A stretch of 64,000 nt of DNA, from positions 6,821,632-6,885,631 of the forward strand of contig CM119271.1 of the NCBI GenBank assembly GCA_051294375.1, in the 5' to 3' direction. The number at the start of each line of letters is the position of its first letter. The stretch's first letter is position 1. Below the pieces are notes generated by a model, which was not told the origin of the DNA, ran no database searches, and saw only the letters and a list, made by a program, of their open reading frames with translations. The position numbers were made by a program, and so were the translations under genes. The stretch comes from Paraspadella gotoi. Its lineage: Eukaryota > Animalia > Chaetognatha. Of this stretch, positions 27,085 to 64,000 are shown one piece after another.

Positions 27085-27302
27085 AACCAATCACTATGAA
27101 AAACTTATCGGAAAAAGGGGGATATTAGAATATTACCATTTTCATAACAACTTTAAAATGTGCAAAATTAAAGATGACCTACAAACGAATGGATCACCAT
27201 GGCGACTTAGTTTGTTGCATTGATAAGTTGCCTCGAACAAAAGGCAAACAAGATATCTTCGGAAATTAAAACCAAAGCATTCAAGAAATCATCGACGGAG
27301 CG

Positions 27303-30910: not shown

Positions 30911-30975
<65 letters not shown>

Positions 30976-33033
30976 CAGTGATTGAAAATATAATACATTA
31001 TGAAATGTACAACAATGTTAAAATTTGGTAAACTTTAATAATGAATAATATCAACAATTAGCTACAGTAATAAATTAGCTGAAGTGCCTACCGCGCCCAC
31101 CACAGCACACCTGGAAGATAAGCAGAAGCGCCCAAAGAACGTAGGTCACTTGTCCCTCCCCTACCACCAGGGGATCACTGAGTCATTGGTGCGGGTGCTA
31201 GCAAAGCAGGGGATCTTCACCTCAGTGACGGCCCACGGCTCTCTGCGTGAGCTATTGGTGAAACCGAAAGATAAAATCCCCAGACCGAAAACATCAGGAG
31301 CCGTCTATTGGGCGGCCTGTGCAGGGGCGGGCAACCAAGCCTGCACAGCAGCATATGTGGGCGAGACAGGAAAGTCTAACTGACCGCTTCCAGCAGCATA
31401 CGAGACCCTATCGCCACTACCTATCTGCTATAGCCGAACACACGGCTAATACTGGCCATCTATTCAGAGAATCAGACTGTCTCATGCTGTCCCAGGACCC
31501 AAGCTGGTTCTCAAGAGGTATTAGAGAGGCAATCTACATCAAAGCCCTCGAGCCCTCTTTGAACCGTGATGGAGGACGATTCAATCTCCCTCCAAGCTAT
31601 GATTCGCTTATCAAAAGCGTGGTGGAGGCCCCGTCTCCACCACGTCCGCACAATGATTCCCCCATCTCCACTCAACAAAATAGGCGGAGACCCTTGCGCA
31701 GGCAATGGGCAGACGATACCTCTCCTTCAACTGCAGCAACTCATTCCCTTCCTCTGTGGACTGAGCACCGCCCAAAGCGACGGCTGCAGGAGGAAGGGGG
31801 GGGAGGCCACCACTCCTGTCGCGAAAGTGGCAAGAATGGACAGCCGCCCACCTTGCCAGCCGGCAAGAAGAGGGCAGTCGGCAGGTGTACCAGGCCAGAG
31901 AGATATCCGAGTAGCATTTGGTTTCTTCCCGCAAGGAAGTCTTCCCAACTCTGCACAAGTAGGCTCCACCAACCTGTCCTCTCAGCCAATGACACACCAA
32001 TGACCCGACCTTATCAATCTAGCCTTTCATTTGTTCATAACCAAGGGGGGCGAGCTCATTTTGAGCTCTTTCTTATTACTTGAAATTTCCCTTTTCCTAA
32101 TTACTTAGTTATCCCTCACTAACAATAAATATTTCACATTTCTGAATTTCTTTTTCATTTCACTAATTTATTACTGTAGCTAATTGTTGATATTATTCAT
32201 TATTAAAGTTTACCAAATTTTAACATTGTTGTACATTTCATAATGTATTATATTTTCAAGCACTGTCTCTCTCTCTCTCTCTCTCCATTTCAATTTCTTT
32301 TCACAAACTATCTCTGTCCTCACCTTCACCTGTCCCTAATAAAAAACTGAACACTATCTTTTCTCTCAAACTCTGTGTTGGAAACTTTGCTCTCTCTCTC
32401 TCTCTCTCTTTCTTTATGCACAAAATTCTCTTCAAATTCACAAATTGAATTGGCGCAGAAGAATACTCGTATGTGAGTCGAAACATGTCCGTTTCACTAT
32501 GAAATAAAAATCGTTGTTAAATCTCTCTTCAAACTTTGTTCTAACCCAAATCACAACGAAACAGAGGAAAAAACACGATAAAATGATAAAATTGCAAAAT
32601 TCCCAAGTGCTTCTCTATTTTAAGTTTTAGATTTTATAATATTAATTAAAATTACTTATTGCAAATTCTTTATTTTTTATTTTTATTATTATTTTTTACA
32701 AATTTTTGTTTTGGATAATATAAATCTGAAAATATTATATTATTATTTTCTTCTGGAAATAGAGGGAGCATCTATAAAACAAGGTTATATTACTTCCGGC
32801 CCTAGTTTTCGAAATAGATATCACACATCAGTCACACATCAGTCAGCTGGTTTTATAAAACAGACCTGTTCCTGAAGCCTCATGGTTTCTTGGCTTGCAA
32901 ATTCCTTCTCTTGTTCCGCTTTGTATGATAGAACATTGTCCAGAAAGTGTAAATCCTTTTGCAAAGTTCTCAGAAGGTTTTCTGCTTTCAAAGTTCGACT
33001 TTGAAATATTTTCAAGAGTTCTTTCGAAGACAT
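29583..33033 (-). CDS. AIMP1: AIMP1/p43 (EMAP-II tRNA-binding domain), multi-exon; intron 1 carries a Penelope-like element
   Basis: N-terminal coiled-coil exon (33033-~32866), then [17 protein letters not shown], a Lys-rich linker, [56 protein letters not shown]. Confidence 0.9.
30703..30744 (-). ncRNA. Minimal type I hammerhead ribozyme motif in the left pseudo-LTR (intact core)
   Basis: Minus strand reads GGCG-CTGAAGA-A-GACTC-GTATGT-GAGTC-GAAA-CATGTC-CGTT: CUGANGA and GAAA core, 5-bp stem II, palindromic ACATGT, GUC cleavage triplet, short stem I. Confidence 0.75.
30916..30976. repeat. (GA)n microsatellite within the pseudo-LTR
   Basis: Long GA run. A shorter GA run lies at 30788-30809 and the mirror TC runs at 32265-32285 and 32390-32410. 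Confidence 0.95.
32452..32493 (+). ncRNA. Second hammerhead copy with a mutated core (probably inactive)
   Basis: GGCG-CAGAAGA-A-TACTC-GTATGT-GAGTC-GAAACATGTC-CGTT: CTGA changed to CAGA, plus a stem II mismatch. Confidence 0.6.
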
Positions 33034-43569: not shown

Positions 43570-46500
43570 TTAGTTTCCGGCAGTTGGTAAACATTGCATA
43601 CTCTCGCACAAACTATACACCTGTGTTTTTAGAAAAGTTACATCTACTTTCTTTAATTTGGAACCTTCAACTTTCGATCTCTGATTCGAAAGCCTCAACA
43701 ATAAGAGATTGACAGTTTTTTGTAACTTATTTTTATTTATTTTTTCTTTCAAGTGCAATTGCTTAGACATCGTCCGCAATGCGATCACGCTCTTCAGAGT
43801 CACACATAGCTGGTCTTCGTCCGGCGACAGACGCGACAACAAAGCTTCCACGGCGTTGACCGAAAGCAAATCCTCGTCAAAAATAGACGAAGTAGCCGCA
43901 AAAACACCAAGAGCGTCGGCGGCGTTTTTCCTTACACCGCAATCGCTATCCTTTAATAAGAGTTGGACCACAACGGGAATTAAAGGTCTCAGCTGACTGC
44001 AATACTCTTCCTTTTTCTCCGTAGCCAAATTTGCCGAGATGACGATAGCTGTGTTGCGAATGACGGCTTGCGGGCTTAAAAGAAAATTACGCAAAGAGGA
44101 AACGGTAGATTTTATTAGACTTAGAGTCTCTGATTGGTACAAAGAGGCAATCAATTGTCTTAAAACGTCAACCATAGGATTAGTCATGCTAAGACTATGT
44201 TTTACTAAGATAGCTGGACTCCCATCAAAAACTTCTTTCCACACAAATTCGCTGTGGTTTGTGGAAATTTCGGACAAAACCGTCAAAACGTCAAAGACTA
44301 GATCAGAAAATTCGTTTTTTGTGGTCTCTAACAATCTTTGGAAAATTAAATTAACCTTTGGTATGTTCTTTAGACTCCAAATGCAATGTTCTATAAATTT
44401 TGTATTAGTTCGGACCAGACTGGATATTAACGTGAAAACGTTTCGCAGCATATCACAATGATCGGCGGAAAGTTCTCCATCCAAAGAAACCTGATTGACA
44501 CTCGCGTGAAGAAAATATGGTACCACTTTGTAGCTGTAATAAGCAATAATTAATGCGCTTAAAACTTCATGGGATAATCGGGCAGAAAATGGAAGGCTCA
44601 GTAACTTCGCGAACAGCGATATTGTCGATAAAGAGCTTGCCTCTCTTTCCCTTAGACGGATTTGAAAAAGAAACTTGGGTGCGAGGACTCTTTGAAAAAA
44701 GGTTAGACAATCATCGGTTCCAATTATCAAGTCAACGGCAGAGAGTGTATCCCTTGAAAAAATTTCTAGTAAGATTTGCAGAACTATTATAATTCCTGGT
44801 GGCGAAAAGTCTGTCCACTCAAAAATAACGAATCCGCAAGCGGTTTTAGTTGATAAATTTTCTTGTTCTTGAAGAAACAAAGAAACGCGCTGACATATTG
44901 ATTGGGACAACGCAGTTTGACTTTTCAATTCGTACGCATTTCCCGACAGCAAAGAGTGATAAAGCAGAATAATCAAACCGTCACTGCTACCGTATTCAAA
45001 AGGAAATCTGACATTCTCAGATGAACCTTCGCCAGAATCTCCGGCCTCCATGATTTCAGTGCAAGCCTGAATCAAAGATTTTCCATCGATATGTAGATTG
45101 TTTTCGCGTAAAGAAATTGATAAAAGCGACGCCAAGAACGCAGCAGACTTACGAACGACGATGCCGGTTTCGGAATCCATAAGCAAAGCCGCGATGAGGT
45201 TTTTTCGTGAAATCGTAAAAAGACTGGGCTCAATGTCCGCATGGACGACCATTACGGCCAATATTTTGAGGGCAAGCTCGACTAATGGGTCTTCATTCTC
45301 AACTGGGAAGCAATTGATAAACTCCGATATGAGATCAAACAATAAGGCCGAAAAGTCTTCGAAGGAAATAATGATAAGCGTTAATTTTTCCGACACCTGC
45401 ATCAACGCGTAAAGAGCTTTCATGGCGTTTAAACGGTGAGATTGATTTCCACAAGCATTTATAAGATTATCGAGTTCGGGTTCGTGATCAGACGCGCATA
45501 AGTGTTTTGCAACGATTGAAGCCAACATTATTTTTGCATTTATGACGTTTTCACGATTTATAGATTCGTCGCAAATTTTTGTTGGAATGTCAACCAATGC
45601 AGCGATGCAGGCAACGGCCATGTAAACAGAATTAGAACATCGTTCTTTCGCTGCGTCTTCCGCTCCCACGGAGCCCTCAATTTCCAATGCCTCGGACACT
45701 GCTTCGACATCCACATAAGTCAAGTCCTTCACCAACGAAAGTATTAAAATATCAAAATATTCGGGGTCCATCAAAACGGTTCCGAACAGAGAAGCTCCAC
45801 GGAACTTGACAGGAAAATGACACATGGCGTCGCACATTAGAATAAAGCAGACTTGACTTTTATCTCGCAGTTGCAAATCTCCGTCGACTTCACAATGCAT
45901 AGTACATGGCAGTATGGAGCAGGTGGAACAAAGCACGTTGTGGTAAAATTCCAAAAAAGAATCGTCAGATGCGTTAGCGGTAAAGTTTTCCCCAATAGCA
46001 ACAATTACTTCTAAATTAAATGTGAGCAAATCCAAAAGGATTTGACGCGACCAGGGTTGATTTTTTACATCGGGGACGAGCTCGCCGTCGCTGAACAAGG
46101 TTTCGAGAAGATTCGTGGATCTAAGGACGAATTGTTTTTGGTCGTTTAGGAATCTAATCAGCCTCGACTTGTCTTCGGCGTGGCCCACAAAACCGACTAA
46201 TGACGATGCGACGCTGAGCAACGATCGCAACTTCGCCGCGCCAACCAGCTCACCAGCCAACATTTTCACCGTAGCATCGTCGAAAGACGAAGAAAAACGT
46301 TGCAAAAAGTCGTCCTCCAACAATTTGGCAACTCCTTCGACGGAGACGTTACTGCTTTGCAAATTATCGGCCAATAGAAGCCATTCGTCGTCGTTGTCGT
46401 CGTCGTTGTCGTCATCATCGACTTCGTTCTCACATCCACCTTCTAACGAGTCTTCCAAATCATTCTCGCTCTTATTCACTTCATCCTCAGCTACAATAAT

Positions 46501-47637
46501 TCCGTCAACCGGTGATTTCTCGTCCGACGTAGAGCGATTATTCATGGCTGCAATTATATTTTCTCCCTGAGCTTCGTTGACGACTTTGCTACTATCTCCG
46601 CTGCCGTCTATCGGAAGTTTTTTCTCAGCTTCGGGCGAATGTTTGAGCTTCGTTTCTCCAACTTGTTCTTCCCTCTTCTCACCGGCCAGAAGTTTCGCGT
46701 CATTTTCCTTCCGTTTCACTTTCGACAACAACCGCGATTGACCGGGATTATTTCCGCGAGACTCGAGCTTCTCCCTCATCTGCTCCTCCTTGGCGAGCCT
46801 CTGCTTTGGCGTAAGAGGGACGGTGAAAGGACTTCGCGAGGGGAGCGAAGACTCCAGCACCACGACCCCGTCGGCGACGAACGGGTGGGAGAGGAGTTGG
46901 GGCCAAGACAATCGTTTTGACGAATCCTTGATCAGAAGGCCCGAGAGAAAACTCTGAAAGTCGGAGTCAACGTTTTCGGGCCACTTTATAGATTCCTTGA
47001 GGATCATGTTGACCAGCTGAAAAATACTGTTCGTGTAGTAAGGAGGCTCTCCGAAAAACAGTTCGTAAAGGATGCAACCCAGAGCCCAGAGATCAGCGTT
47101 GTGGTCGTACGGCTTTTCTTCAACCAATTCCGGGGCCATGTAAAGCGGTGTACCTTTTATAGACGTCAGCACCATAGTTTCGATACTCATGGCCCTCGCG
47201 AATCCGAAGTCGCAGAGTTTGATGGAATTCGTGGTCGAGACGAGAATGTTTTGGGGTTTCATGTCGCGATGGAGAATGCGATTTGAGTGAAGGTAGTAAA
47301 GGGCGGAGACGAGTTGACAAGCGATGGATTTGACTTGGACCAAGGGCAATCGCCCGTCGTCCTCGAGAATCTGAAAGAGTTCTCCCTCGCAGTATTCGCA
47401 GACGGAGACGACGTCCTTCTCCGTTTCGAAAGTGTCCATCATCTTAACGATGTTCGGGTGCTCCAGCGTCTTCATAATGTCTATCTCTCGCTTGAGGTTG
47501 CGCAAGTCGGCCTCCGACTTTCCCGATTTGCTGATGAATTTGAGGGCGACGATATGACCCGAGTACTTGCGCCTCGCCTTGTAGACTCGCCCGAACGATC
47601 CCTCGCCTATCATGGCGATAACATGATAGTCTTCCAT
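43570..47637 (-). CDS. STK36: Fused/STK36 serine/threonine kinase with C-terminal HEAT/ARM region, intronless
   Basis: 1355-aa ORF: MEDYHVIAMIGEGSFGRVYK, HRDMKPQNIL, DFGFARAMS..TMVLTSIKGTPLYMAPELVEEKPYDH. Confidence 0.95.
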   Translation of the reverse strand: MEDYHVIAMIGEGSFGRVYKARRKYSGHIVALKFISKSGKSEADLRNLKREIDIMKTLEHPNIVKMMDTFETEKDVVSVCEYCEGELFQILEDDGRLPLVQVKSIACQLVSALYYLHSNRILHRDMKPQNILVSTTNSIKLCDFGFARAMSIETMVLTSIKGTPLYMAPELVEEKPYDHNADLWALGCILYELFFGEPPYYTNSIFQLVNMILKESIKWPENVDSDFQSFLSGLLIKDSSKRLSWPQLLSHPFVADGVVVLESSLPSRSPFTVPLTPKQRLAKEEQMREKLESRGNNPGQSRLLSKVKRKENDAKLLAGEKREEQVGETKLKHSPEAEKKLPIDGSGDSSKVVNEAQGENIIAAMNNRSTSDEKSPVDGIIVAEDEVNKSENDLEDSLEGGCENEVDDDDNDDDNDDEWLLLADNLQSSNVSVEGVAKLLEDDFLQRFSSSFDDATVKMLAGELVGAAKLRSLLSVASSLVGFVGHAEDKSRLIRFLNDQKQFVLRSTNLLETLFSDGELVPDVKNQPWSRQILLDLLTFNLEVIVAIGENFTANASDDSFLEFYHNVLCSTCSILPCTMHCEVDGDLQLRDKSQVCFILMCDAMCHFPVKFRGASLFGTVLMDPEYFDILILSLVKDLTYVDVEAVSEALEIEGSVGAEDAAKERCSNSVYMAVACIAALVDIPTKICDESINRENVINAKIMLASIVAKHLCASDHEPELDNLINACGNQSHRLNAMKALYALMQVSEKLTLIIISFEDFSALLFDLISEFINCFPVENEDPLVELALKILAVMVVHADIEPSLFTISRKNLIAALLMDSETGIVVRKSAAFLASLLSISLRENNLHIDGKSLIQACTEIMEAGDSGEGSSENVRFPFEYGSSDGLIILLYHSLLSGNAYELKSQTALSQSICQRVSLFLQEQENLSTKTACGFVIFEWTDFSPPGIIIVLQILLEIFSRDTLSAVDLIIGTDDCLTFFQRVLAPKFLFQIRLREREASSLSTISLFAKLLSLPFSARLSHEVLSALIIAYYSYKVVPYFLHASVNQVSLDGELSADHCDMLRNVFTLISSLVRTNTKFIEHCIWSLKNIPKVNLIFQRLLETTKNEFSDLVFDVLTVLSEISTNHSEFVWKEVFDGSPAILVKHSLSMTNPMVDVLRQLIASLYQSETLSLIKSTVSSLRNFLLSPQAVIRNTAIVISANLATEKKEEYCSQLRPLIPVVVQLLLKDSDCGVRKNAADALGVFAATSSIFDEDLLSVNAVEALLSRLSPDEDQLCVTLKSVIALRTMSKQLHLKEKINKNKLQKTVNLLLLRLSNQRSKVEGSKLKKVDVTFLKTQVYSLCESMQCLPTAGN

Positions 47638-48556
47638 GTTTTCTTTGATTTTTGCTCATTTGAAAAGGCGAAAATAATACTAAAACAAAAACATCGAAAT
47701 AATGTTTTTTTATGACACGAGTTAAAGAAAGTGACAGGATAACGGTTCTGAATCATATTTCATAAATTTTATTCGATTTTATTATTAAATAACAGAATTA
47801 AAACATTCGTGAATCATCAAATGTCAATAAGCTTAACTATTATTAGTGCCAGAATATCATCCAAACTAATTGGATTTCAACAACAAAAATTGTGCTACGT
47901 TAAAAACTTGAAAATTAATCCTAAGACTTCCGAGGCTTTCAAAAAAATGCTTACAAAAAACATTTTTCAATAGTAGGTATGAAACTGCCCAATCACCCGG
48001 AGACGTAAAACGTTATTTGGCATTTCGAATCAAAGTTATTAATGTGAAGCTCGGCGCATCATGCCGACTGGCTTGACGGCTTTCAAAAGTGCCAAAAAAA
48101 TTTTAAAAGTATAACGATCTCGCCAGACCTTACTATCAAAGAAAATTATTGAAAAAAAAAAACGAATGATTGATGCAGTAATGAATTATTGATATAATAA
48201 TAATAGATTATTAATGTAATAATAATTGTTATGCCAAAAAGATCATGATTATTTTTCACGTTTGAAACGTCGCGAGAGAGAGAATTGTGCCTCTCGAAAA
48301 CCCGGACGTTAAACGCTTTTAACATAGCGTTGGTAGTTTCCATTTTAAAATCATATTTAATCGTTTTTAATCCTACGTTTTTAACTTTATAATCTCGAAA
48401 ATTAAACTCGTTAATTTCACAAGTCTTTTATAAACTCATTCATGTCGCCATTTTTAATTGTTGATAATAAACTGACCAACGGTTCCAAAATCCTAATGTC
48501 CTTTGATGAAGACTAAAGGTCAGCCAATGAAAAAGTACAGTGAGAGGCACAAACAG

Positions 48557-48830
48557 TGATTATTGATGTAATAGTAATTGATTATTGATGTAATAGTAAT
48601 TGATTATTGATGTAATAGCAATTTATTATTAATGTAATAACAATTGATTGATGTAATAGTTTAAATTGATTATTGATGTATTAGCAATTGATTATTGGTA
48701 TAATAGTAATTGATTATTAATATAATAGCAATTGATATTAATATAATAGCAATTGATTATTAATATAATAGCAATTGATTATTGATGTAATAGCAATTGA
48801 TTATTGATATAATAGCAATTGATTATTAAT
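48557..48830. repeat. AT-rich ~22-bp minisatellite (~12 copies)
   Basis: Unit approximately ATTGATTATTGATGTAATAG(T/C)A repeated in tandem. Confidence 0.9.
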
Positions 48831-49082
48831 TTTTAAAAAAGCGTGACGACGATGACGATGGCGGCACGAAGCAGAAACGAACCAAAATCTCGCCCAAAAC
48901 GGGCCTTTGCCCGTCTGGCGAGATAAAAAGATCTTAAACGTCTCACCGGCAAAATTGGAAAATGCTACAAAACTACAGATAGCATTTATTTGAAGACAAA
49001 GCTTAGTTTCTTTTAATTAATTTTAACACGTGGTAAAAAATAATTACCACCAACAAAAAATAAATAAGACCGCTCAATCTTA

Positions 49083-52000
49083 TCACTCTTGAGGCGTAAA
49101 CAACTGAATCAATCCCACTTCGTCGGGCGAAACCTCCAACAATGGTTTTTTCTCGGGCTTTTTTTTAATTATCGGTGGCAAATTATTAATCGACATCGTT
49201 GAACGGAAGCGTTGTCCAACGTTCTTCCCGATGACGCTCTCAACGAGATTTTTAAAAATATCCCGCTTCCTTTTATCGTTCGGTGTTTTGCCGTCCTTGG
49301 GAAGAATTTTCCCGTTGAACTCCTTGATCTTACGTTCGCTAACATCAGGGACTTTGCCGAGTGCCGCCACTAAAGAATTTTGGTGTGTCGGAGCCATGGC
49401 TTCGTAAAACTGAAGGCCGAGAGTAAGGAGGTTCGCCTGAAGCGCGTCGTGCTGCCCGTTTTCGAAGAGACCCTTAAGAATATCCATAAAAAGCTTCTCC
49501 ACAACCTCATTCGGCAGCGTGACTCGAGACACAATTTCCTTGACGAGAGGTAACGCCAAGTTGGCGCATTTGCCGCAGGTCGCCGTGTCTTTCCAACTCA
49601 AAGCCTGAAACGCCAGAAACAAAACGGAGGTGCATAGTGCCTCTTCCTGACAAACCATCTTCCCAATCTCGCCGATGGGGGAATCAACAGACTTCGCTGG
49701 CGCTGAGTCGACGACCCCATCGTCCCCCTCCATGGCGGCGTCGCCTTCGTTCGCTTCCTCCGATCGGGCCGTCGTTTTTTCGAAGCAGATAAGCAGAAGC
49801 AGATCCAAATATTCGCGAGTGAGTAATCGGACGACGGCTTCGTCGACGACCTCGTCGTTCGTCACTTCCGGCGCGTTATCATCCCCAGAATTCTCTCGGC
49901 CATTAATGGTCTCCCACTCGACGACTAGTCGGCGGGTCAGGAATGGGCAAAATGAGCGTAAAATGGTCAGAGCTACTTGAGGGTGGCCGCGAGGCAAGTT
50001 TTGAAAAAATGGTCTTAAGAAGTAGCGCACGATTAGTCTAATTCGATAATTAGGAACCAATTCGAGATCGAAAAATACGTTTGAGTCGATAAAAGACGGG
50101 AGTCCTTCGAGCATGTAGTATTGTTGCCCCAAGGATCCGCCGCATATGCCAAGGATTTGGCAGCCTGTATCGTAGATAGCGAGACAAAACTGCTGGAGCC
50201 GCTCTTGGGGATTTTTGGGAGCTCCAAAGGACTCATGGACCGAAACGTCGACGACGCTAGCGGGCGATGTAGTAATTCCCACCAGCTGCTTCTTCTCTCC
50301 TTCTGGAAGCGACAAAGCCCGAGTGTAATCGGGATGAAGACGGGACATCCCAGCATGGGTCCACATGGCGTTAAGATTCCGCAACATAAGGCAAACGTTT
50401 TTGAGCAAAGGAATTACGTGCGGCGTTGCTGGATTTCGAAAAATAGCTCCCGACGGTTCAGCGAGGCCGTCCACGACGAATCCGTTATCCCTAGCCAGCG
50501 AAAGATTTTCTGATACCTTAGATATCACACTGGCAGTTCTTGTCACAACTCCTCTGATCATGTTTAGACAGAGGACGATATTAGATCTGTTAATGCCGCA
50601 GATGTCATCGGCGCTTGGTTCAGACGCCGGCTGATCTAGCCCGACGTAGGTCATAAACTTATGCGGAGGATGATTATCTTCAAACGCGAGGAGCATTTCC
50701 TCCGACTGCCATAGTCGACGTATAGGTTCGAGGACACTGCTTAGGAAGGCACTTTGCTTGTCAAAATTTTCGAATCGGTTGGAGATCAGAATGAGTGCTT
50801 CGTATAGAGTAACTTTCTCCATTTGAGATAATTGGCCGGAGGCATCAAGATTCGTGATGTAGTCAAAGAGGACTTGGAATTTTGGAAGCATAAAGTCGGC
50901 GTGCTTTTTACAGATAGCGACGAGAGAAGAACAGGCATGGCGACGCAAGTTCTTGGTGGCCCTAGATCGAGTTGCTTTCGTTTGTCCCCCGACATTAAAT
51001 ACGACGGCACTGAACAACTTTTCGAGCGTTGCGAGAAACAAAGGGGCTTCGCAACTTCCGTGAGTCAAGCAAGGAAAGAGTGCTGAGACGCAAGACAACA
51101 TAGAAGAAAAGATGACAGGGTCGTCGGAGGTGACGTCGAGGAGCGATTTTAAGAGATCCATTGCCTTTTGTGTAAGAACTTCGTCGGAAAGATTAATCCT
51201 ACTCATGACGCAGTCCAACAGAGTGGCACATGCGTCCCAGCGTTGAACGTCGTTGGATTTGTTACCGAGATCTCCGATAAGCTTAATGAGCCACTGCGAC
51301 GCAACTTCCACGAGTTCGCGGGGAAAGAATTTTGTTCCTAGCCGAATGTTTTGAGAAACGCTGGCGCGCAGTTTCGCGAAAAACTCGAAAAAGTCGTCGT
51401 CAGAGTCGAAGTCCATTTTGGAGTAAGTGCAGGAAGGATGATCATTGGCAGAGGGAAACCCGACGCGAATTAGTTTTGAAGGCAGACCCTTCATCAGTCG
51501 CGGAAGAACATCAAGGAAGTACGAGTCACGAGAAATTAAATTATGACCGAGAAAACTGGACCACAACGGCATCGCCAAGTTGTTAAGCACGTGACTGTCG
51601 TGGAGAGAAAATTCGACCAAAGATGAGAGAAAGATCTGAAAATTTTCTGGTGGAGTTTGGACGTCAACCTCGGAGGAACCCCATAAAACGATCAATTGGC
51701 CTCCAAGCGCAACGAGCACTTGGCAAAGGCGTTTGAGGAAAAGGAAGTTACGTTCGTCCGTCGGGTGGGCGGTCTCCATGACTGCGCGAAGGATGGCGCG
51801 CATGGAATCTGCGCGGAAGACAAAAGGCACGAAAGGCGACCGCTCGGCGTGCTTTCCTTTCCGACCAACAATTAAAAGAAGCACCTCCACGGCGTTTTGT
51901 CGTAATTGCGTCTCCGACAAAAGCTCACATAACATCCGCAGTAGCAGAGCATCGTGTCTGACAAGGTATTCAACCGGAATCCATTCCACGTAGCCACTGA

Positions 52001-52700
52001 GGGTCCTCAAAACAACCGACGAGATTTGGCACGCGGCTTTACAAACATTTTCATCAAAATTTTTTTCCCTTTTAGTTTTGTATAAGTGAACATAACGGTT
52101 CAACAACTCCAAAAGAAAGTCAAAAATCTGACTCATGTTCTGAGTCAAAGCCTGTTGAAGCTCTCTTCTGCGTTGGCTGGGAAGATTTTGAAAAACGACC
52201 ACATCCTCCGCCAAACGAAGAAGTATGTAAAGAACGAGTTCTGTTTGAGTATCACCTAATGCTGCTAGCTGTTCCAATTCTTGCAACATCAAAGGCCATT
52301 GTTGTGGCCACTCACGTTTGATAATTTCAACAATGAGTCGAGAGAGTGCGTCCTTGATGTGTGCCGGTTCCACCAGCAACGCGTTAGTTCCATTGGCCAT
52401 CAACGTCATGGCGCTGTTCTTCACGAACACTTTGTCTTCGATGCTCATATTATTCCACTGAAACTTGATGCTATGCTCAAAGAGTTGCAATCCGAAATGG
52501 CGTACCATAGGGGAAAAGGATTTTCCTGCGAGGACCATTCCACAAGGACCACAATTAGGAGAGGACTCTTTAAAACGTTCGCAAAGGAGGTACGCTTGTT
52601 GTCGAATCTCCATCGAGAGAGAGGATGACGGATCGAGAGCCGTTTCTACCGCCGAGGCAAGCTGTTGCACGGTTTCAGGGTCGACGTTCATTTGGCTCAT
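49083..52700 (-). CDS. XPO5: Exportin-5, intronless
   Basis: 1205-aa ORF: VRHFGLQLFEHSIKFQWN, HIKDALSRLIVEIIKREWPQQWP, LLRLAEDV, RRHACSSLV, C-terminal VIGKNVGQRF. Confidence 0.95.
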   Translation of the reverse strand: MSQMNVDPETVQQLASAVETALDPSSSLSMEIRQQAYLLCERFKESSPNCGPCGMVLAGKSFSPMVRHFGLQLFEHSIKFQWNNMSIEDKVFVKNSAMTLMANGTNALLVEPAHIKDALSRLIVEIIKREWPQQWPLMLQELEQLAALGDTQTELVLYILLRLAEDVVVFQNLPSQRRRELQQALTQNMSQIFDFLLELLNRYVHLYKTKREKNFDENVCKAACQISSVVLRTLSGYVEWIPVEYLVRHDALLLRMLCELLSETQLRQNAVEVLLLIVGRKGKHAERSPFVPFVFRADSMRAILRAVMETAHPTDERNFLFLKRLCQVLVALGGQLIVLWGSSEVDVQTPPENFQIFLSSLVEFSLHDSHVLNNLAMPLWSSFLGHNLISRDSYFLDVLPRLMKGLPSKLIRVGFPSANDHPSCTYSKMDFDSDDDFFEFFAKLRASVSQNIRLGTKFFPRELVEVASQWLIKLIGDLGNKSNDVQRWDACATLLDCVMSRINLSDEVLTQKAMDLLKSLLDVTSDDPVIFSSMLSCVSALFPCLTHGSCEAPLFLATLEKLFSAVVFNVGGQTKATRSRATKNLRRHACSSLVAICKKHADFMLPKFQVLFDYITNLDASGQLSQMEKVTLYEALILISNRFENFDKQSAFLSSVLEPIRRLWQSEEMLLAFEDNHPPHKFMTYVGLDQPASEPSADDICGINRSNIVLCLNMIRGVVTRTASVISKVSENLSLARDNGFVVDGLAEPSGAIFRNPATPHVIPLLKNVCLMLRNLNAMWTHAGMSRLHPDYTRALSLPEGEKKQLVGITTSPASVVDVSVHESFGAPKNPQERLQQFCLAIYDTGCQILGICGGSLGQQYYMLEGLPSFIDSNVFFDLELVPNYRIRLIVRYFLRPFFQNLPRGHPQVALTILRSFCPFLTRRLVVEWETINGRENSGDDNAPEVTNDEVVDEAVVRLLTREYLDLLLLICFEKTTARSEEANEGDAAMEGDDGVVDSAPAKSVDSPIGEIGKMVCQEEALCTSVLFLAFQALSWKDTATCGKCANLALPLVKEIVSRVTLPNEVVEKLFMDILKGLFENGQHDALQANLLTLGLQFYEAMAPTHQNSLVAALGKVPDVSERKIKEFNGKILPKDGKTPNDKRKRDIFKNLVESVIGKNVGQRFRSTMSINNLPPIIKKKPEKKPLLEVSPDEVGLIQLFTPQE

Positions 52701-52993
52701 TTTTTTCTTTCACAGATTAGGCCTACTGTTTATCACAGATCTGAAAATTTTCAAAAACGTAACAATAACGGGTTTCCTTATATGAAAGGATTTTATTATT
52801 AAAACAATCAATAAATCAATTCAATCTAATGACCTTCGATAAATACGTGGGAAATGAGGAACTCTGTTCTTTTTAGGTTAAACTAATACTATAAAAACTC
52901 GAGAAATATAGGCTTAGATCCCTAGACTTTAAATCTGGACAATCCAATCTAGAAATCCCCCACTCGAATATTTATCACAGTTGCTAACAACGT

Positions 52994-56431: not shown

Positions 56432-56770
56432 TGTACCGCTACTCTTTCTCCCCCAGAGGAGAGAAACTATAAATAAAATGGCAAAAATATACGTATATCA
56501 ATTTATAGAAATCCATTGTCTTGAAATAAATTTATGAACACGAATGCGGGGAAAGATGAAAACGAATTCTAAATCATGATTTACGCAAGACTCCGAAAAA
56601 CATTGAATGAAAAAAAAATTGTAAAAATTTATGAAACTAGAAAAAAAATCGATCGATTTGGCAAAAAAAAAAAGTGGAATCATAGTCAAAGATAATGAGA
56701 TACCTAAGTCTAAAAAAACTATCCGTTAATGCAATTAATGGCAAGTAATAAAAACGCTAAAACCCATGTT

Positions 56771-57247
56771 TCACATGTTGAGGGAAGAGTTAGAGTCCTC
56801 GTTGGATTGGCTGGAAAGGGTAGAGCACTGAGAGTCTTCGTTGTGCAATAAAACGGATGAAGGTCCGCGACCGTTGGTAGGCGTGGCTGTTCCTCCGGTA
56901 CCGTGTCCGTTGCTTCGGGGCGTAGATGGCGAGTTGGGACCGGTGGAAGCTACATTATTTGAAATGGCGGTCAACGGAAGATTCTGATTCAACGAGAACT
57001 TCTCTCCCTCCTTCTTACCTTTGGTGGCGGTTCCCGACCCAAGTCCTTGCTTGAGGACGTCTCTTTGGAACCCGTTATCGCCGGTCATGGCGATCGGAAC
57101 CCATTTGTAGATCTTCATGGTAGTTTCGCCTATCGTCACCCACTTTTTCTCCCATTTCCGAACTTTGCCGAAAGATTGTTTGACCTTTTTCACTTCGTCC
57201 TTCGCCCGGGCTCGAGTCTCCGCCCGAACGGCGCGAGAAAGAGACAT
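56771..57247 (-). CDS. BCL7: BCL7 family (BAF complex) protein, intronless
   Basis: [19 protein letters not shown]...[24 protein letters not shown]. Confidence 0.93.
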
Positions 57248-57782
57248 CGTCTTTCGTTTGGTTTGGCTTTTTTTATCGAAACCAACACTCAGCTGTTAGT
57301 TTAGTATTTCGTCGCACAATTTAAAACCTGCAAAAATTTTTTATAAAAACGCACAAATGCATATTAGTATGTAGATGTCAATATTTTGTCTGTCCAAACT
57401 AAAAAAATTTGGATAGCTACAATCATAAAAGAAAATTAATTTTTTTTCATGACAAACAGATCTGAAATAAACCTTTTCTTCAGTGGGCGTCAATCAAAAT
57501 TACTATTCACGCCTCATGATTAATAACGATTGCATGTATAATATATGTAAAACTATAACCAACTATAAAATAAAGTTAATATCTCTCGCCAACTAATGTA
57601 CTTAATACCAATAAAATGAAACTATAAAAAAAACGAAAGAAAGAGAAAATAAAGTTATGATAAAAAATGTATTAAACAAGATTCATCCTCTTTCTTTCAA
57701 ACTAATTAATTCGAGCTCATTTGCCGTTGGAATTGAATAGTCTGAGACTAGTAGTCTCCCAGAAAGGTAACAAAATAACGAC

Positions 57783-59444
57783 TCAAGCCTTTGCCTCCGG
57801 CTGATACACTTCATAGAGTACATACTCTTCCATGAAGGACGGCGCGTATATGGTGCGGGCCTTGAACTTAAGTCCCAGGGCGGCGATGTCGGCTTCGACG
57901 CGCTTGTGGTAATCCTTGGCATTGAGGCAATTGCCGCGAGCCAGGAATTTGCCCGTCCCCTTTCTCAAGACCTTCAACGAAAGCTCGAGAATGAGATTGT
58001 TAGTGACGAAGTCGTAGCCAAATCCCTTGATAGCCTTTTCGACGGGATACTCGGTAAGATCATTGATAACGAAGTCGACCTGAGAGTGTCCAAAATACTC
58101 GTTGTTTAAAAAGAGTTCTCACGAAACGAGGATCGTTATAAATGAAACCAGAAGACCTTTTTTCCTTGATCAGCAAATTCCTGAAGAACCTTAACGCAAT
58201 CGTCCAAAACTATCTCGTAGTTATCGCCTTTCAATTTGTCCAGAGAGTCGCCGCAAACTCCTCGCAGATGTTGTCGACAAGCCTTGATGACTTCGAGATC
58301 GATCTGATACCAGAATATTTTATTTTATTTTCAATTTGGAAAAAAAAATAGATGAACCATACCTCCGCCATGGTGATAAATTTAGGATTTTCCTTCTGCA
58401 ATTCGTGAAGAATCCCGCCGTCCCCACCGCCCAAAATCAAAACTTCCTTATTTTGATAATTCTCTTTGTGCATATCTTGATTGTCTCCAATGCCGCACAA
58501 TACGGTAGTGTAGATCAAATCGCTTTCTGTATAATCGTCAATGGCCAAGTTTATTTTAAAATCAATACAAAAAAATAAAGGGCTTCAGTCCTGACCCCCT
58601 AACATGACGTCGTCGTCCAGCACCAAGATGTTGCCGTTGCTTGGCGAGTGGACGATCTTAATATTTTGGTAAGTGGAGTCAGAGTCGAAGATGATTTCGT
58701 CCCAGTCGGTCTCGATTATGCGATGATCAGCGAGTATGTTGTAACTCCAAACCTTCGTCCCACGCCGAATCCCTTGGAAATGAGGTTGTCGCGTTGTGAA
58801 AAGTAGAGGGGACAAGAACTTTCTTTATTCCACAAATATTACCTGAGTTGAGGATATTACATTCCCTGATTTCGTTAATTTCAAAGCCCTTCAAGAATCG
58901 AGCCTGATATTCCCTGCTAGTTTCTAAAGTGAAGTTTTTGAGGCTAGTGAATTGCACTTCGACGTTGATTAGCCCGTCGGAGTAGAATTTGATGGTGGCG
59001 TGACTCCCGTCCTGAATAAATGAAGATTTTGTAATTTGTCATTTAGTGCTCCCACTTTTTTTTACGCTCAAGAAACAATGTGGATTTCTATCTGAAAATA
59101 TAAAAAAAAAACAATTGAATTTAACAAAAATATTTGTACACGGACAATGGCAACAGATTTGTTAGGTTTTATTACCTAATCCATGACAGTAAATAAAATC
59201 ATCTCCCTCTTCGACTTACGCAGGACACTGAAATCACCTCAACATGATAAAGAATCATAGCGACGGCGCGGGATTTCGGCCCCGAGAGGTCGATGAATTT
59301 TTTTGAGATCTCTCGCTCTGCTTCGTCCAACAGAAACAGTTTGCGACGGATGTCGTCGAATCGTTTTTCGATCCTCCTAAAATCTTTGATCATATCGGGG
59401 TCCACCCTCATGTAGAACACCATCGTGTCAGTGACAACTGCCAT
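57783..59444 (-). CDS. SMS: Spermine synthase, multi-exon
   Basis: [24 protein letters not shown]|[48 protein letters not shown], plus a metazoan-type N-terminal domain. Confidence 0.9.
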
Positions 59445-59832
59445 TTTCTTTTGACTGATAAACGTTCAAGTCGGTCCAACGATTCTTCGATGAAACGTAA
59501 AGCAAATTAATAGAAGAGAAGAGAAAGGTTCGAGCACATCTCCTGAAATGTATCGCTCTTCCTCCTCGCCAACAGAAATGAAAAGACTGGTGAGGTATTG
59601 TGAAGGTGTTTGCGCCAAACAACCAGTTACAGCTAATTTGTTAGTAGCCATTCGTTATTACCGAGAAGCTTCAAACCAATAACGTGCAAAATAACAATAA
59701 CGAAAAAAATTAAAACCAAAGTCCACGAGCTTTGCGAGCAAAGATTTTTGGACATCTATGGGGAAAAATTCAAAAACTTGGTAATCAACCTAAAACAAGA
59801 AAAAAAAATCGTACAAAAATCGCCAATTCCGA

Positions 59833-60968
59833 TCAATACACGGAACCGAGATTTTTGGCGAGAACCCACTGGTCGACTTGGTGTCTCAAGTAATTGACGA
59901 TCTCCTCGACCATGGGCCGCCCATTGGAAGCGTTTCTCCGAAAAAAGACCTTTCCGTTTTCGTCCGCGTAGAGGCTGAGGAACGAGGCTCGCTCGCTCGT
60001 CGCGAAGGGCAAAATCTCGATCTCGACGACGTAGGGGAGCGGAGGGACGGACTCTTTGCTGCGCAGGATCTCCACCGCTCGTCGATCGCACCAACAATAC
60101 TCTTCGGAGCGAAAGAGGTGGAACCGGCGTCCGGCGTCGTGATTTTCCCGCGCTACGGGCGCGACCCGGCGAAAAAAATCCATGTCTTCCGTCATCCACT
60201 CGTGGGAAACGACGGGAACGAAGCGAAGATTCCATCGATTCTTTGACGCCGGCGGATCGAATCGCGAAAACAGATCCTCGAGGTTTTTTCTCACGTGTTG
60301 CTTCTGATCCTCTGAAGTGAAAGAAGAAGGATAAAAAATTATGGCCGATAAGGGTAGGGTAAATAATTCTCATCATACCTGTTAAGAGCATTCCCTTGAC
60401 GAATCCATTGTCTAAAACTCCGAGGAAGACCGTGCCTCCGTGAACAGTATTCAAGAAAGCATTGAGGGTGGAAGAAACCGGCTTTCTGGTAGAATCCATC
60501 TCGTCTAATTCGGTCGACTGACTGGATCGGGGACATTCGTCCTTCGCTAGCGAACGATGGCCTGTTGAAAAAAAAATTGAATCTACAGTAGTATCGCTTG
60601 CATGAAAAACTCAAATTTATTAAAAACTAAACTTTTAATAAATCATAATTTGATATGCGTATTGATCGAACCGAACCTTTAAACTCGAAGTAACGGTCCT
60701 CGTCGAAGGGCAATTCTTTATTGCGAACGTAAAACTGTTGACCGTCGGCGTCTTCGACTTTACAGTTAGAGAATCTGTCGACGGTGAGGGTTCCATCTTC
60801 GTTGACCTCTCTGGACCCAACGACGCGGTAATCGACTCGGTCCCCGAAAAACTCAGTCGTATCAACGTGTAATTGATTCACTCGCGACGTGGAACTTGTG
60901 AAAAATGGAGAAACGGTAGAAGACGTGCGAATGTCCCCGTGGGGAATTTTACACGACCATCGCTCCAT
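59833..60968 (-). CDS. Stand-alone Schlafen/AlbA_2 domain protein, three exons
   Basis: LPFDEDRYFEFK|GH, LNAFLNTVHGGTVFLGVLDNGFVKG, LFSRFDPP, YVVEIEI, VFFRRNAS. Confidence 0.8.
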
Positions 60969-61071
60969 GACGGAGTGACTTTGTAACTGTGACTGGAAGA
61001 ATAATTTGTACATTGAATATTTAAAGAAACAAACCACGATAAAATCAAAAGCAAGGCGATCAAAAGGAAAT

Positions 61072-62361
61072 TCATTTCTTCCTGTCACGGCGATCGAGTC
61101 GGGATCTGTCTCTATCCCAGCCTTTTTCAACTCTGTGTGGAGAGCGAGAATCACCGTTGTGATAAAAATCGCGGTCTCTTCTTTCCGAAACTTCCGTTGA
61201 TCTTCCTTTCGGCCTTGTCGGAGTCGGTTTACGATCTGCTGAAAGGGATCGTCGCCTATATCCAGAAGGCGACCGAGACCGTTTTTTAAATCTGCCAGTC
61301 GATAGCGACTTCATCGCGGGAGATCTTGATCGTGATCTTCGCCGACTAAACGACGGTGGCGACTTTAGAGCGGGAGAAATCGACCGCCGCCTTATTCTGT
61401 CTCTCGTTTTGTCGTCAGCGCCGCGTGGCGATTTCGGGAGTCCCCCGTGATAATCTTTCAAGTCTCTTTCCCTTTTATCTTCGTCAGATTCGTCGTCGTC
61501 GTCCGAATTATCGCGCTTTTTAGACTTCCGTTTCTTTTCTTTTTTCTTTTTCTTTTTATTCTTCTTTTCTTCCGACCCTCCGTTCTGTAGCTTTAAAAAT
61601 TTTTTCATCAATTTTTTCTTTTCTTTTTCGGTCAAGTTTCTAATGAAGGCGATTTCGTCCATGTCGTCGTCGTCGCTCTCGATCATCCTTTCGTTTTCTA
61701 TCTCCTGGTCGAGGGGGCGCTCCTTGGCGTTTCGCTTCAGCACCAGGTTATCCTCCTCCATGCCATCGAGAATCTCGTCTCGCGTTAGAGTTTTGTCGCT
61801 GGTTTCGCCGTCGTCGCGACGATGACGCTGCTGGTTCTTCTTGCGTGCCTTCTCTTCCTCGATCTTGGCCTGCACCTCCAATTGCTGCCCTGCCTCTTCT
61901 TTGGACAGGCCAAACATGGGGCAGATGCGCTGAGTGTTGAGATGTCCCCACTGATGGCACTTGATACACCGAACGTTGCGAACCTCGATGCCGAACGGCT
62001 GATCGCGCACCTCCTCGTTCCCTTTGGCGATATCCTCGCGCGGGGCATTGTACTTGCGTTGCCACTCGAACTTAACCTCTGCCTGGCCGAGGGCGGCGGC
62101 CTCTTTGGCCTCTAAGTCCTGTTTCCGCGCCCCGGGCGGAGGTTCATACATGAAGGAGAGGCCAAGTTTAGCCTTTTCGTTACCGAGCAGCTGCTTGTTC
62201 TGAAACAATTCCTGTTCACGCGCGTATTGTGACCGAAGATCCGCCTCTTTTTGCTCCCGCAGCTTCTTCTCCTCCTCTTTCATCCATATTCTCTTTTGGT
62301 TGTCACGATTGGCAGGATGAAAATCCTTTTTCATCATAAAGTTCTCGAATCCCTTCCCCAT
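61072..62361 (-). CDS. CIR1: Corepressor interacting with RBPJ 1 (CIR1), intronless
   Basis: MGKGFENFMMKKDFHPAN, LSFMYEPPPG, KFEWQRKYNAPRE, DQPFGIEVRNVRCIKCHQWGH, Lys/RS-rich tail. Confidence 0.95.
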   Translation of the reverse strand: MGKGFENFMMKKDFHPANRDNQKRIWMKEEEKKLREQKEADLRSQYAREQELFQNKQLLGNEKAKLGLSFMYEPPPGARKQDLEAKEAAALGQAEVKFEWQRKYNAPREDIAKGNEEVRDQPFGIEVRNVRCIKCHQWGHLNTQRICPMFGLSKEEAGQQLEVQAKIEEEKARKKNQQRHRRDDGETSDKTLTRDEILDGMEEDNLVLKRNAKERPLDQEIENERMIESDDDDMDEIAFIRNLTEKEKKKLMKKFLKLQNGGSEEKKNKKKKKKEKKRKSKKRDNSDDDDESDEDKRERDLKDYHGGLPKSPRGADDKTRDRIRRRSISPALKSPPSFSRRRSRSRSPAMKSLSTGRFKKRSRSPSGYRRRSLSADRKPTPTRPKGRSTEVSERRDRDFYHNGDSRSPHRVEKGWDRDRSRLDRRDRKK

Positions 62362-62577
62362 CTTGGCGGTTCGGGTTGCGTCTTTTTGAAAACGAATAAA
62401 ACTTGCTAAATGAAAATAAAATGTCAATATCATGAGCAATTGCTTATATCAACATTGGTTACAGAATGCATATATGTTTATGCAAGCAAATGAAGAAAAA
62501 ACTATCGGCTAAAAATCTAAATAACATTTTCTTTTCTACGACATGAAAATTGTCCACATCACGCAGAAGTCCGGCGG

Positions 62578-63600
62578 TCAATGGCCTCCAATCGGGGGTA
62601 TCTCGCCTCCCCACTGAGCACAAAGGGTCACGTAGACGTATGCCTGGATGAGGCAGACGGCCAACTCAAGGCCCATGAACGCCGTTTGGGCGAGGAACAA
62701 AATGGGACCTCCGATCATCCCACAATTCTCGATTCCCTCAGAACAAAGTGCCAGCAACACATGACCCGCCGTCATGTTGGCCCCGAGACGAACGGTCAGC
62801 GTCAGAGGTCTAATCAACAGGGAAATGCTCTCGATCAGAACCATGGCAGGCATTAGAACGCCGGGGGTTCCCACAGGTACCAAGTGAGCGAGCATATCTT
62901 TCGGCGTATGGGCCCATCCGTGGATGAGTTGGGCCGACCAAACGCAGACTGAAAGACAAGGAAGGACTGGAAGAATCAGGGCCACCGGCGCGGAAGTCAT
63001 TGGGACGATGTAAGGAATGAGACCGGCGAGATTGAGAATAGCTATGGAGAGCATCAGAGGCGGGAGAGGAGATAGGGCTAATTGCGTCTTTCTCTTGGCA
63101 TCGAATGCAGAATCCGTCCAGAGGTCCCAAATATTATCGCCGTAGCCTTTGACGACGGCATTGTAAGCGTGACCGTTGCCGCCCAAGAAGATAAAGCTGC
63201 TGTGCGGATGATTCTTGGGAAGTCGCCCAAAAAGGAGTTTCATCTTGTCTTTTGACTTTTCCTCGTAGCCGATCATAGGCTGAAGCTGATCTGGACCCGT
63301 CTGTATCATTAAAATCTTTGGCAAAAATATAACGCTGCCAACGGAAAGAGCGTAAAGGAGACCGGTGGTCCCAACTGGATCGAATCCCATGAAGATGGTC
63401 CTCCTCTGCCGGACAATGCAATTGAGCCCAAAGCGACTATCCCCTAGCAAAAATTTTCTGTTGGTAGCAAACCTTTCTAACTTTTGACTTAAATAGGACA
63501 ATGACCCATAAGCCTTTTGGCAAGTTCTAAACTGATAACTGTTAACGACGTTAAAAAGTCCGATTTTTCCCGCTAAAGCTCTGCCCGCAATGGTTGCCAT
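62578..63600 (-). CDS. ATP6: Nucleus-encoded F0 ATP synthase subunit a (ATP6) with N-terminal presequence-like extension
   Basis: 340-aa intact ORF in the standard code: LNLAGLIPY, LAHLVPVGTP..LMP.MVLIESISLLIRPLTLTVRLGANMTAGHVLL, LELAVCLIQAYVY. The N-terminal ~70 aa are Arg/Lys-rich and acid-poor. Confidence 0.93.
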   Translation of the reverse strand: MATIAGRALAGKIGLFNVVNSYQFRTCQKAYGSLSYLSQKLERFATNRKFLLGDSRFGLNCIVRQRRTIFMGFDPVGTTGLLYALSVGSVIFLPKILMIQTGPDQLQPMIGYEEKSKDKMKLLFGRLPKNHPHSSFIFLGGNGHAYNAVVKGYGDNIWDLWTDSAFDAKRKTQLALSPLPPLMLSIAILNLAGLIPYIVPMTSAPVALILPVLPCLSVCVWSAQLIHGWAHTPKDMLAHLVPVGTPGVLMPAMVLIESISLLIRPLTLTVRLGANMTAGHVLLALCSEGIENCGMIGGPILFLAQTAFMGLELAVCLIQAYVYVTLCAQWGGEIPPIGGH

Positions 63601-63779
63601 TTTTCGAAAATCAATTAATTAAAAATCTGCAAATAAAAAGAAGACATTTTTATACAAACTCATACGATAATCTAAATTTGATATCATGATTAAAGTATTT
63701 TAAAAGCTTAACCAACACTTCATAAATGCTACAGTTGGGTACACTTCTTATATTTAAAAATAAAAGTTAGTGACTTTTT

Positions 63780-64000
63780 TTAGTGTCCACCCTCTGGGGG
63801 AATCTCTCCGCCCCATTGCGCGCAAAGGGTGACATAAACATAGGCTTGGATCATGCAAACGGCCAGCTCGAGTCCCATGAACGCCGTTTGCGCCACGAAG
63901 CCCAAAGCGCCGCCGATCATCCCGCCGTGCTCTATGCCCTCGGAGCAGAGAGCCAGAAGAACGTGACCGGCCGTCATATTCGCCCCGAGACGCACGGTCA
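63780..64000 (-). CDS. ATP6: Second tandem nuclear ATP6 paralogue (3' end only; rest lies beyond the window)
   Basis: TVRLGANMTAGHVLLALCSEGIEHGGMIGGALGFVAQTAFMGLELAVCMIQAYVYVTLCAQWGGEIPPEGGH*, colinear with the first copy. Confidence 0.9.
   Translation of the reverse strand, partial: TVRLGANMTAGHVLLALCSEGIEHGGMIGGALGFVAQTAFMGLELAVCMIQAYVYVTLCAQWGGEIPPEGGH

Follow-up and report, generated by a model that had tools for sequence, protein, structure and literature searches.

The absence of atp6 from chaetognath mtDNA has been known since 2004. Chaetognath mitochondrial genomes are described as lacking both atp6 and atp8 (PMC5470650, PMC5633667, PMC7194472, PMC5374615, PMC5856267), and in the sections of the reviews that deal with it, atp6 is counted among the lost genes and no nuclear counterpart is named. 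Our literature search, which had subscription journals outside its reach, yielded no report of a nuclear chaetognath atp6; we rate a prior mention as conceivable, though improbable. In the accessible text and the three PDF supplements of the arrow-worm genome paper, "atp6" occurs 0 times, and the large spreadsheet accompanying that paper may list the gene through automatic annotation. Elsewhere, nuclear ATP6 has been described for ctenophores, chlorophytes, and apicomplexans in a preprint (bioRxiv 10.64898/2026.08.04.742770), the available text of which contains 0 occurrences of "chaetognath." The ctenophore genes (Mnemiopsis and Pleurobrachia) are considered here second-hand, as described in PMC5633667 and bioRxiv 10.64898/2026.08.04.742770, and chlorophyte nuclear ATP6 has been presented as a natural model for allotopic expression (PMC10809612). 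In macrodasyidan gastrotrichs, both atp6 and atp8 are reported missing from mtDNA, and atp6 matches were found on nuclear contigs; these candidates are ~155 aa long, four with premature stops and three with predicted targeting signals, and are described as "pending further validation" (PMC12862867).

Within the window, that is, the whole 64,000-nt stretch of DNA that was analyzed, we characterized what is very probably an intact, polyadenylated nuclear ATP6 gene, likely of an arrow worm, the product of which is predicted to be imported via a cleavable 70-residue leader and which likely replaces the atp6 missing from chaetognath mtDNA. As reported for ctenophore nuclear ATP6, atp6 is missing from the mtDNA of the likely host phylum, the protein has a predicted N-terminal targeting sequence, and the helices are less hydrophobic; unlike the ctenophore genes, as known from their description, the present gene has a bilaterian-type sequence, most likely goes back to a separate transfer, shows no threonine enrichment, and carries a ~45-aa insert as well as a tandem duplicate in an operon. 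With the chlorophyte (Chlamydomonas and Polytomella; PDB 6f36_M) and apicomplexan nuclear ATP6, it shares the organization of a subunit a with a presequence, here a predicted one, and the same fold, but it is distant from them in sequence and the threonine enrichment reported for these groups is absent. Unlike the gastrotrich candidates, the present gene is full length and is accompanied by transcript, selection, and family evidence. It also resembles protostome mitochondrial ATP6 (sea spiders, insects, and Artemia, PDB 9b0x), with 43 to 49% core identity, shared catalytic residues, and the FDP motif; from these proteins it differs in the standard genetic code, the leader, the insert, a 5-aa insertion in the hairpin, and a smaller fraction of Leu, Ile, Val, and Phe.

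Coding sequence and genetic code

The intronless coding sequence, hereafter copy A, occupies 62578–63600 on the reverse strand; read from 63600 to 62578 in the standard code, it yields 340 aa with zero internal stops. The match of the product to the Pfam family ATP-synt_A (PF00119; E = 3.9e-29, 102.5 bits against a curated cut-off of 33.9) is, at the sequence level, far beyond chance, in agreement with the intact subunit-a frame reported in the initial annotation. Compared with named subunit a proteins, copy A scores 91 bits against brine shrimp, 68 to 76 against mammals, 43 to 48 against yeasts, and 39 against Polytomella. The subunit-a core (residues 178–330; 62611–63069, reverse strand) contains H239, E257, R271, N275, H280, E312, and Q319. 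The essential arginine that had been recognized in the VRLGAN motif is R271 (codon 62788–62790), and it aligns with human R159, whereas E257, N275, H280, E312, and Q319 align with human E145, N163, H168, E203, and Q210, respectively, with residue numbers counted from the printed alignment. All six of these proton-path residues were checked and are present in copy A, and none of them varies in either of two alignments, of 18 and 56 rows.

Animal mitochondrial codes read TGA as Trp, and the invertebrate mitochondrial code would read AGA/AGG, ATA, and TGA as Ser, Met, and Trp, respectively. As noted at the outset, copy A has no in-frame TGA; all five of its Trp codons are TGG, and TGA (62580–62578) serves as the stop. 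The invariant R264 is encoded by AGA in copy A and by CGC or CGA in two relatives, the R67 codon is AGG, CGC, or AGA across copy A and its relatives, and I186 and I334 are encoded by ATA in copy A versus ATC or ATT in the relatives. An invariant Arg encoded by AGA, conserved Ile encoded by ATA, Trp encoded by TGG throughout, and a TGA stop show that copy A has been recoded for translation in the cytosol. The GC content, previously described as nuclear-like, is 0.51 (0.57 at third codon positions), within the ranges of 0.45 to 0.52 and 0.50 to 0.59, respectively, covered by the five neighboring genes measured.

A zero-gap operon with two atp6 copies

The stretch or part of it is contained in 13 sequencing runs from five studies, none of them registered as RNA; two runs (X10 and X11), containing a small share of it in pieces of only 44 to 280 nt, were left out, and two others (X8 and X9) represent one sample. 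The GT-AG spliced joints of the neighboring genes are found in X1 (nine) and X8 (eight of nine) but not in X2 (zero of nine), indicating that X1 and X8 contain mRNA-derived sequence and X2 genomic sequence; the RNA origin of X1, X8, and X9 is deduced from the spliced joints and poly(A). One X1 contig, from a 2018 study other than the possible sources of the assembly, covers 60676–64000 unbroken and with no differences, and contigs of X1, X2, and X6 join atp6 to the downstream CIR1-like gene; in all three runs atp6 is linked to spliced genes, as expected for a nuclear location. The depth of X2 is flat (37.6 to 38.7 on atp6 versus 28.7 to 51.9 on the neighbors from 55602 on), which speaks, if only weakly, against an organellar origin; X2 may itself be the source of the assembly. 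Animal nuclear genes in the window encode an Ig/FN3 protein, exocyst Sec3, thiolase, RasGEF, a kinase, exportin-5, SUV3, BCL7, spermine synthase, and the CIR1-like protein.

Four long housekeeping genes on the reverse strand are single open frames, namely, the MgsA-family AAA ATPase (9924–11924), the 1361-aa kinase (43573–47655), exportin-5 (49086–52709), and the CIR1-like gene (61072–62361). Among the other features of the window are a ~1.9-kb element (30653–32543) with long terminal inverted repeats that are 94 to 99% complementary and decayed ORFs, presumably derived from a retroelement, that have no Pfam match, and an AT-rich minisatellite array of 22-nt units (48158–48852) between the kinase and exportin-5 genes.

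The boundaries of the atp6 transcripts are marked by sequence that is not templated by the genome. In X8 and X9, poly(A) tails are joined at 62403 and 62406 for copy A, where the genomic sequence has no A run, and at 63626–63631 for a second copy lying upstream, copy B. The 3′ UTR of copy A (62406–62577, reverse strand), in which no AATAAA-like signal was found, ends at the AG acceptor of the next gene (62407–62406), and that of copy B (63627–63779, reverse strand) ends at the trans-splice acceptor of copy A (63627–63637, reverse strand), the AG of which (63628–63627) coincides with the copy B poly(A) site, as defined by the ends of X8 and X9 contigs. At this acceptor, joined at 63628, X8 and X9, hence a single sample, carry 18 nongenomic letters, and this leader is absent from the window even when up to three mismatches are allowed. 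The resemblance of the acceptor to those of the neighbors, part of the original description, holds for four other gene boundaries nearby (compared with 63637–63627), and the proposed check for poly(A) expression has a positive outcome, with non-templated poly(A) on both copies and a nongenomic 5′ leader on copy A, given the deduced RNA status of these runs.

The next gene, intronless and located at 61072–62361 (reverse strand), encodes a Cir_N domain (PF10197; E = 6.2e-09), and we take it to be a CIR1-like corepressor; an X9 contig has 22 unaligned letters behind 62405 at this gene. Farther downstream (57390–60993, reverse strand) lie an unnamed gene and the spermine synthase gene (PF01564), both with GT-AG introns supported by spliced joints in X1 and X8. 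The former, at 59756–60968 between the CIR1-like and spermine synthase genes, has two introns and no Pfam match, although we presume that one of its motifs recalls Schlafen/AlbA domains. Five transcript ends (63627, 62406, 60993, 57390, and 56467) each fall on a pyrimidine-rich AG, and the cluster 56467–63627 (reverse strand) is a trans-spliced operon devoid of intercistronic DNA; a contig spanning several genes is by itself no proof of a single transcript. Together with the single open frames of the long housekeeping genes, the absence from atp6 of an intron that its relatives probably have makes lineage-wide intron loss in operon genes possible. In the zero-gap operons of Ciona, as described in PMC7986045, the poly(A) site of one gene is likewise the trans-splice acceptor of the next, and by analogy, trans-splicing may itself set the 3′ ends here. 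Unlike in Ciona, the zero-gap arrangement is found here in a likely chaetognath, a phylum for which the papers mention, in the parts available, only short distances (<250 bp).

Copy B extends from 63780 to beyond 64000 on the reverse strand, so that its last 72 codons (63780–63998), closed by a TAA stop, are in the window (PF00119; E = 4.2e-13). It lies ~1,202 nt upstream of copy A, in register with it, and is 77% identical at the nucleotide level over 205 nt. Contigs of X1, X2, X6, X8, and X9 pass position 64000 and, after 362 letters, match copy A again (63161–63225). The copy B contigs are 1,101 nt long in X8 and 1,078 nt in X9, and the 422 letters 5′ of the renewed match in the former, compared with 421 in copy A, indicate that copy B is full length, including a 5′ part the size of the leader. 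A 7,722-nt X1 contig runs 1,813 letters past the end of the window, ~1 kb beyond the expected start of copy B, so the operon probably contains a further upstream gene. Copy B, the ~45-aa insert, and the lineage were not part of the initial annotation.

Between copies A and B, pN is 0.085 and pS is 0.78; the saturation of synonymous sites points to an old duplication, and both copies are constrained. In the final 72 aa, copy B shares more identities than copy A with each of the 13 relatives compared (65 to 70 versus 60 to 65), and at 12 sites where at least 29 of 30 relatives agree, copy A has a different residue, marking it, as judged from these comparisons, as the more divergent of the two. 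There is a smaller but appreciable chance that the family is a true nuclear ATP6 but that most of complex V depends on copy B, with copy A being a paralogue that is diverging or confined to certain tissues. The age of the duplication and the changes at family-fixed sites fit this scenario, but copy A retains all catalytic residues, is polyadenylated, and bears a leader, and its pN relative to the relatives (0.12) is only slightly above the value between two relatives (0.095). Being compatible with a functional transfer, the paralogue scenario bears solely on the share of copy A.

Relatives, lineage, and origin of the transfer

Among 7,997 scored candidates, 76 matched at E ≤ 0.001, including nine clusters with 161 members that we refer to as the atp6 family; these clusters are 63 to 80% identical to copy A over 81 to 100% of the query and score 370 to 569 bits, compared with 113 bits for the best match outside the family and ≤60 bits for bacterial-type matches. 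Most family members are on contigs of ~1.4 kb, the size of an mRNA. In the alignment of 30 full-length relatives, taken from 70 listed, 184 columns are invariant. A metagenome scan produced 47 pattern matches that resolved into three loci, two of which are true relatives (L001 and L002); the third (L003) was rejected because its contig is unrelated and matches the motif by chance.

L001, which is 74% identical, opens with 25 nt that equal the end of the chaetognath spliced leader SL2.0 without a mismatch, and L002 starts with the 7 nt that end leader forms 2–4, as listed in Table 3 of PMC2481426. The 18-nt leader of the locus itself (63628, X8/X9) has no match among the chaetognath leaders of that 2008 table, and its motif was found in 0 papers; it is possibly species specific. 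The assignment to a phylum therefore rests on the relatives. In the mature part, identity to the family with the exact chaetognath leader is 79 to 84%, and the family stands on one long stem with 100% support, leading us to assign the lineage with high confidence to Chaetognatha, one of the two animal groups mentioned in the initial annotation as lacking mitochondrial atp6. That the host is instead another trans-splicing bilaterian, which shares the transfer or received the gene, seems most improbable, even though its own leader is unmatched in the available 2008 table, macrodasyidan gastrotrichs are also reported to lack mitochondrial atp6 (PMC12862867), and the named matches of the Asn-tRNA ligase encoded nearby reach only ~40% identity; the identity and the shared stem argue against it, and only some of the three arrow-worm leaders are common to different species according to the genome paper. 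The ligase, of the mitochondrial type, is encoded by an intact, intronless gene at 25771–27090 (reverse strand), with unnamed matches at 49 to 63% and a search in which the phylum was not named among the ~40% named matches. Such an intact gene is unexpected, given the description of chaetognath mtDNA as stripped of many, or nearly all, of its tRNAs (PMC11886574).

All five N-terminal fragments of relatives seen in ENA, two of which may come from one species, diverge from the family at one shared codon, and a Val (GTN) stands at the break as seen at the protein level, which likely reflects a phase-0 GT intron in the relatives. The coding sequences of copies A and B both lack this putative intron.

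When copy A is compared with L001 and L002, pN is 0.12 and pS is 0.74 to 0.79 in the mature part, whereas pN is 0.38 to 0.47 in the leader; with pN across comparisons of 0.085 to 0.125 and saturated pS, the mature part bears the signature of strong purifying selection. We regard it as extremely unlikely that copy A is a nonfunctional nuclear mitochondrial insertion (NUMT) or a redundant copy, with atp6 still present in the mtDNA. This explanation is already largely refuted by the standard-code recoding, the TGA stop, the leader, the poly(A), the low pN with saturated pS, and the 161 relatives. A scan of the window under codes 1 and 5 detected no further mitochondrial ATP6-like piece, and neither a retained mitochondrial code, nor neutral decay, nor accompanying mtDNA is found. 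The functional transfer from mitochondrion to nucleus put forward in the initial annotation is instead supported by the recoding, the poly(A), the 5′ leader, the linkage to spliced genes in more than one study, purifying selection, the family, and the likely intron in relatives.

In a subunit-a phylogeny, suggested earlier as a check, the family forms a fully supported clade; the tree did not fix the placement or the donor. It comprised 27 rows, none of them from a ctenophore, alga, fungus, or gnathiferan. Placement of the family next to the five bacterial rows, which amounts to a basal position, had an AU p of 0.445, and grouping with deuterostomes had an AU p of 0.133. An isopod sister seen in a quick tree disappeared in the careful one and was rejected as a long-branch artefact. 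The basal place beside the bacterial rows, in a tree of this composition, is what could be cited for a contaminant, a chimeric contig, or horizontal transfer from a bacterium, alga, or fungus. However, contigs of three runs connect atp6 to the CIR1-like gene, animal mitochondrial ATP6 ranks first by similarity, led by brine shrimp and well ahead of the bacterial-type matches, and the N-terminal F-x-x-F-D-P motif aligns with that of protostome mitochondrial ATP6, leaving a foreign origin only a minimal probability. The first rank of bilaterian mitochondrial ATP6 makes the animal's own mtDNA the likely donor. We further infer that the transfer was separate from that in ctenophores because atp6 is still mitochondrial in other bilaterians and because bilaterian mitochondrial ATP6 provides the best named matches.

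Leader, insert, and membrane helices

Residues 1–70 (63391–63600, reverse strand) constitute a predicted mitochondrial presequence with 12 Arg and Lys and 2 Asp and Glu, ending in ...VRQRRTIF, as anticipated by the earlier description of a basic N-terminal extension. The R-x-I-F motif precedes MGFDP in 16 of 16 family members printed and likewise in all 30 aligned full-length relatives, and MGFDP, directly after the leader, aligns with the start of mitochondrial ATP6. Cleavage is predicted near R67-x-I-F, just ahead of MGFDP, and the composition and conserved motif, as sequence features, fit a mitochondrial targeting sequence. A search for the leader's donor among shorter proteins returned, among seven candidates, only four fragments, all of the atp6 family itself; borrowing of the leader from subunit c found no support in this search.

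The first membrane helix (approximately residues 79–97; 63310–63366, reverse strand), defined by the alignment and the model, is followed by a hydrophilic insert of ~45 aa (63181–63309, reverse strand) that separates it from an amphipathic helix, the boundaries of the insert in the alignment being uncertain. The insert is conserved: the segment 71–178 comprises 108 to 109 aa in each of the 17 family rows, compared with 53 to 70 aa in 25 mitochondrial ATP6, and there is a 5-aa insertion in the hairpin relative to protostome mitochondrial ATP6. None of the five pieces of leader and insert searched against Pfam had a match at E ≤ 10, and a PDB search with both yielded no match. In the structure model of copy A (pLDDT 64; core blocks 76 to 90), the insert is modeled at pLDDT below 50, and the long tilted helix-hairpin fold of subunit a is present; all 18 Foldseek matches at E ≤ 0.001 are ATP synthase entries (best E = 2.6e-06, TM 0.52/0.62), an agreement that is not independent because ATP6 homologues were in the alignment used for the model. 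A full-length model was discarded (pLDDT 36). By standard subunit-a topology, the insert is presumably on the matrix side, where the ATP8 tail of other animals also runs. It is speculation, and in our estimate unlikely, that the insert stands in for the ATP8 tail, so that one nuclear gene would cover both missing subunits and represent the first well-supported functional bilaterian nuclear ATP6, importable via Pro, Gly, Ala, and Cys rather than Thr.

The membrane helices of the family are less hydrophobic in several, though not all, respects. The highest 17-residue GES window is 1.94 to 2.08 in 16 family rows versus 2.10 to 2.51 in 26 mitochondrial rows (from 39 matches, less 2 unnamed rows and 11 elephant rows that nearly duplicate one another), the mean Kyte-Doolittle value of helix 6 is 1.18 to 1.35 versus 1.56 to 2.44, and the two hairpin helices contain four and three prolines versus at most two and two. 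The hydrophobicity of helix 1 is unchanged, the Kyte-Doolittle maximum of helix 4 is higher (2.35 versus 1.94), and the core mean of copy A (1.18) overlaps the mitochondrial range (1.15 to 1.50). Over five membrane segments, Leu, Ile, Val, and Phe account for 38 to 41% of residues in the family versus 44 to 54% in 19 protostome or unnamed rows and 45 to 48% in 5 vertebrates, with Ala, Gly, Pro, and Cys taking their place. Thr makes up 4.2% (3.9 to 5.2%, 17 rows), compared with means of 5.0% (1.4 to 8.6) for the 19 protostome or unnamed rows of mitochondrial ATP6 and 11.3% for the 5 vertebrate rows; threonine enrichment was thus not found relative to these comparators, which include no gnathiferan. 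This composition analysis omitted the echinoderm row; its family rows are not independent of one another, and arthropods are heavily represented among its comparators. Prolines have been reported to favor transfer to the matrix (PMC2171449).

In the probable sequence of events, atp6 was transferred once, early on the chaetognath stem, and was then recoded and gained the leader and the ~45-aa insert. A position within a trans-spliced operon would have provided a promoter and a 5′ end at once while separating the mRNAs. After cytosolic translation, the long basic leader would drive TOM/TIM23 import, and a matrix peptidase would cut near R67-x-I-F. The prolines would stop the hairpin from arresting in TIM23, and the proline-rich, less hydrophobic helices would pass to the matrix; a chain not arrested there could then be reinserted by Oxa1, as is ATP6 made inside mitochondria, and be assembled against the c-ring, where R271 would lie between the half-channels. 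The import steps invoked here (TOM/TIM23, matrix peptidase, and Oxa1) are established import biology.

Few mitochondrial proteins are as hard as ATP6 to express from the nucleus, and allotopic gene therapy is being directed at human MT-ATP6 disease; with 161 relatives showing which changes are fixed, a natural bilaterian version would offer a ready template for allotopic ATP6. By lowering hydrophobicity other than through threonine, the family also tests the 2026 claim, as it appears in bioRxiv 10.64898/2026.08.04.742770, that threonine substitution is a convergent solution. A nuclear copy is partly expected because the subunit is essential. The gene described here likely closes the gap left by the missing chaetognath atp6 and adds another transfer of ATP6 to the nucleus, in a bilaterian.
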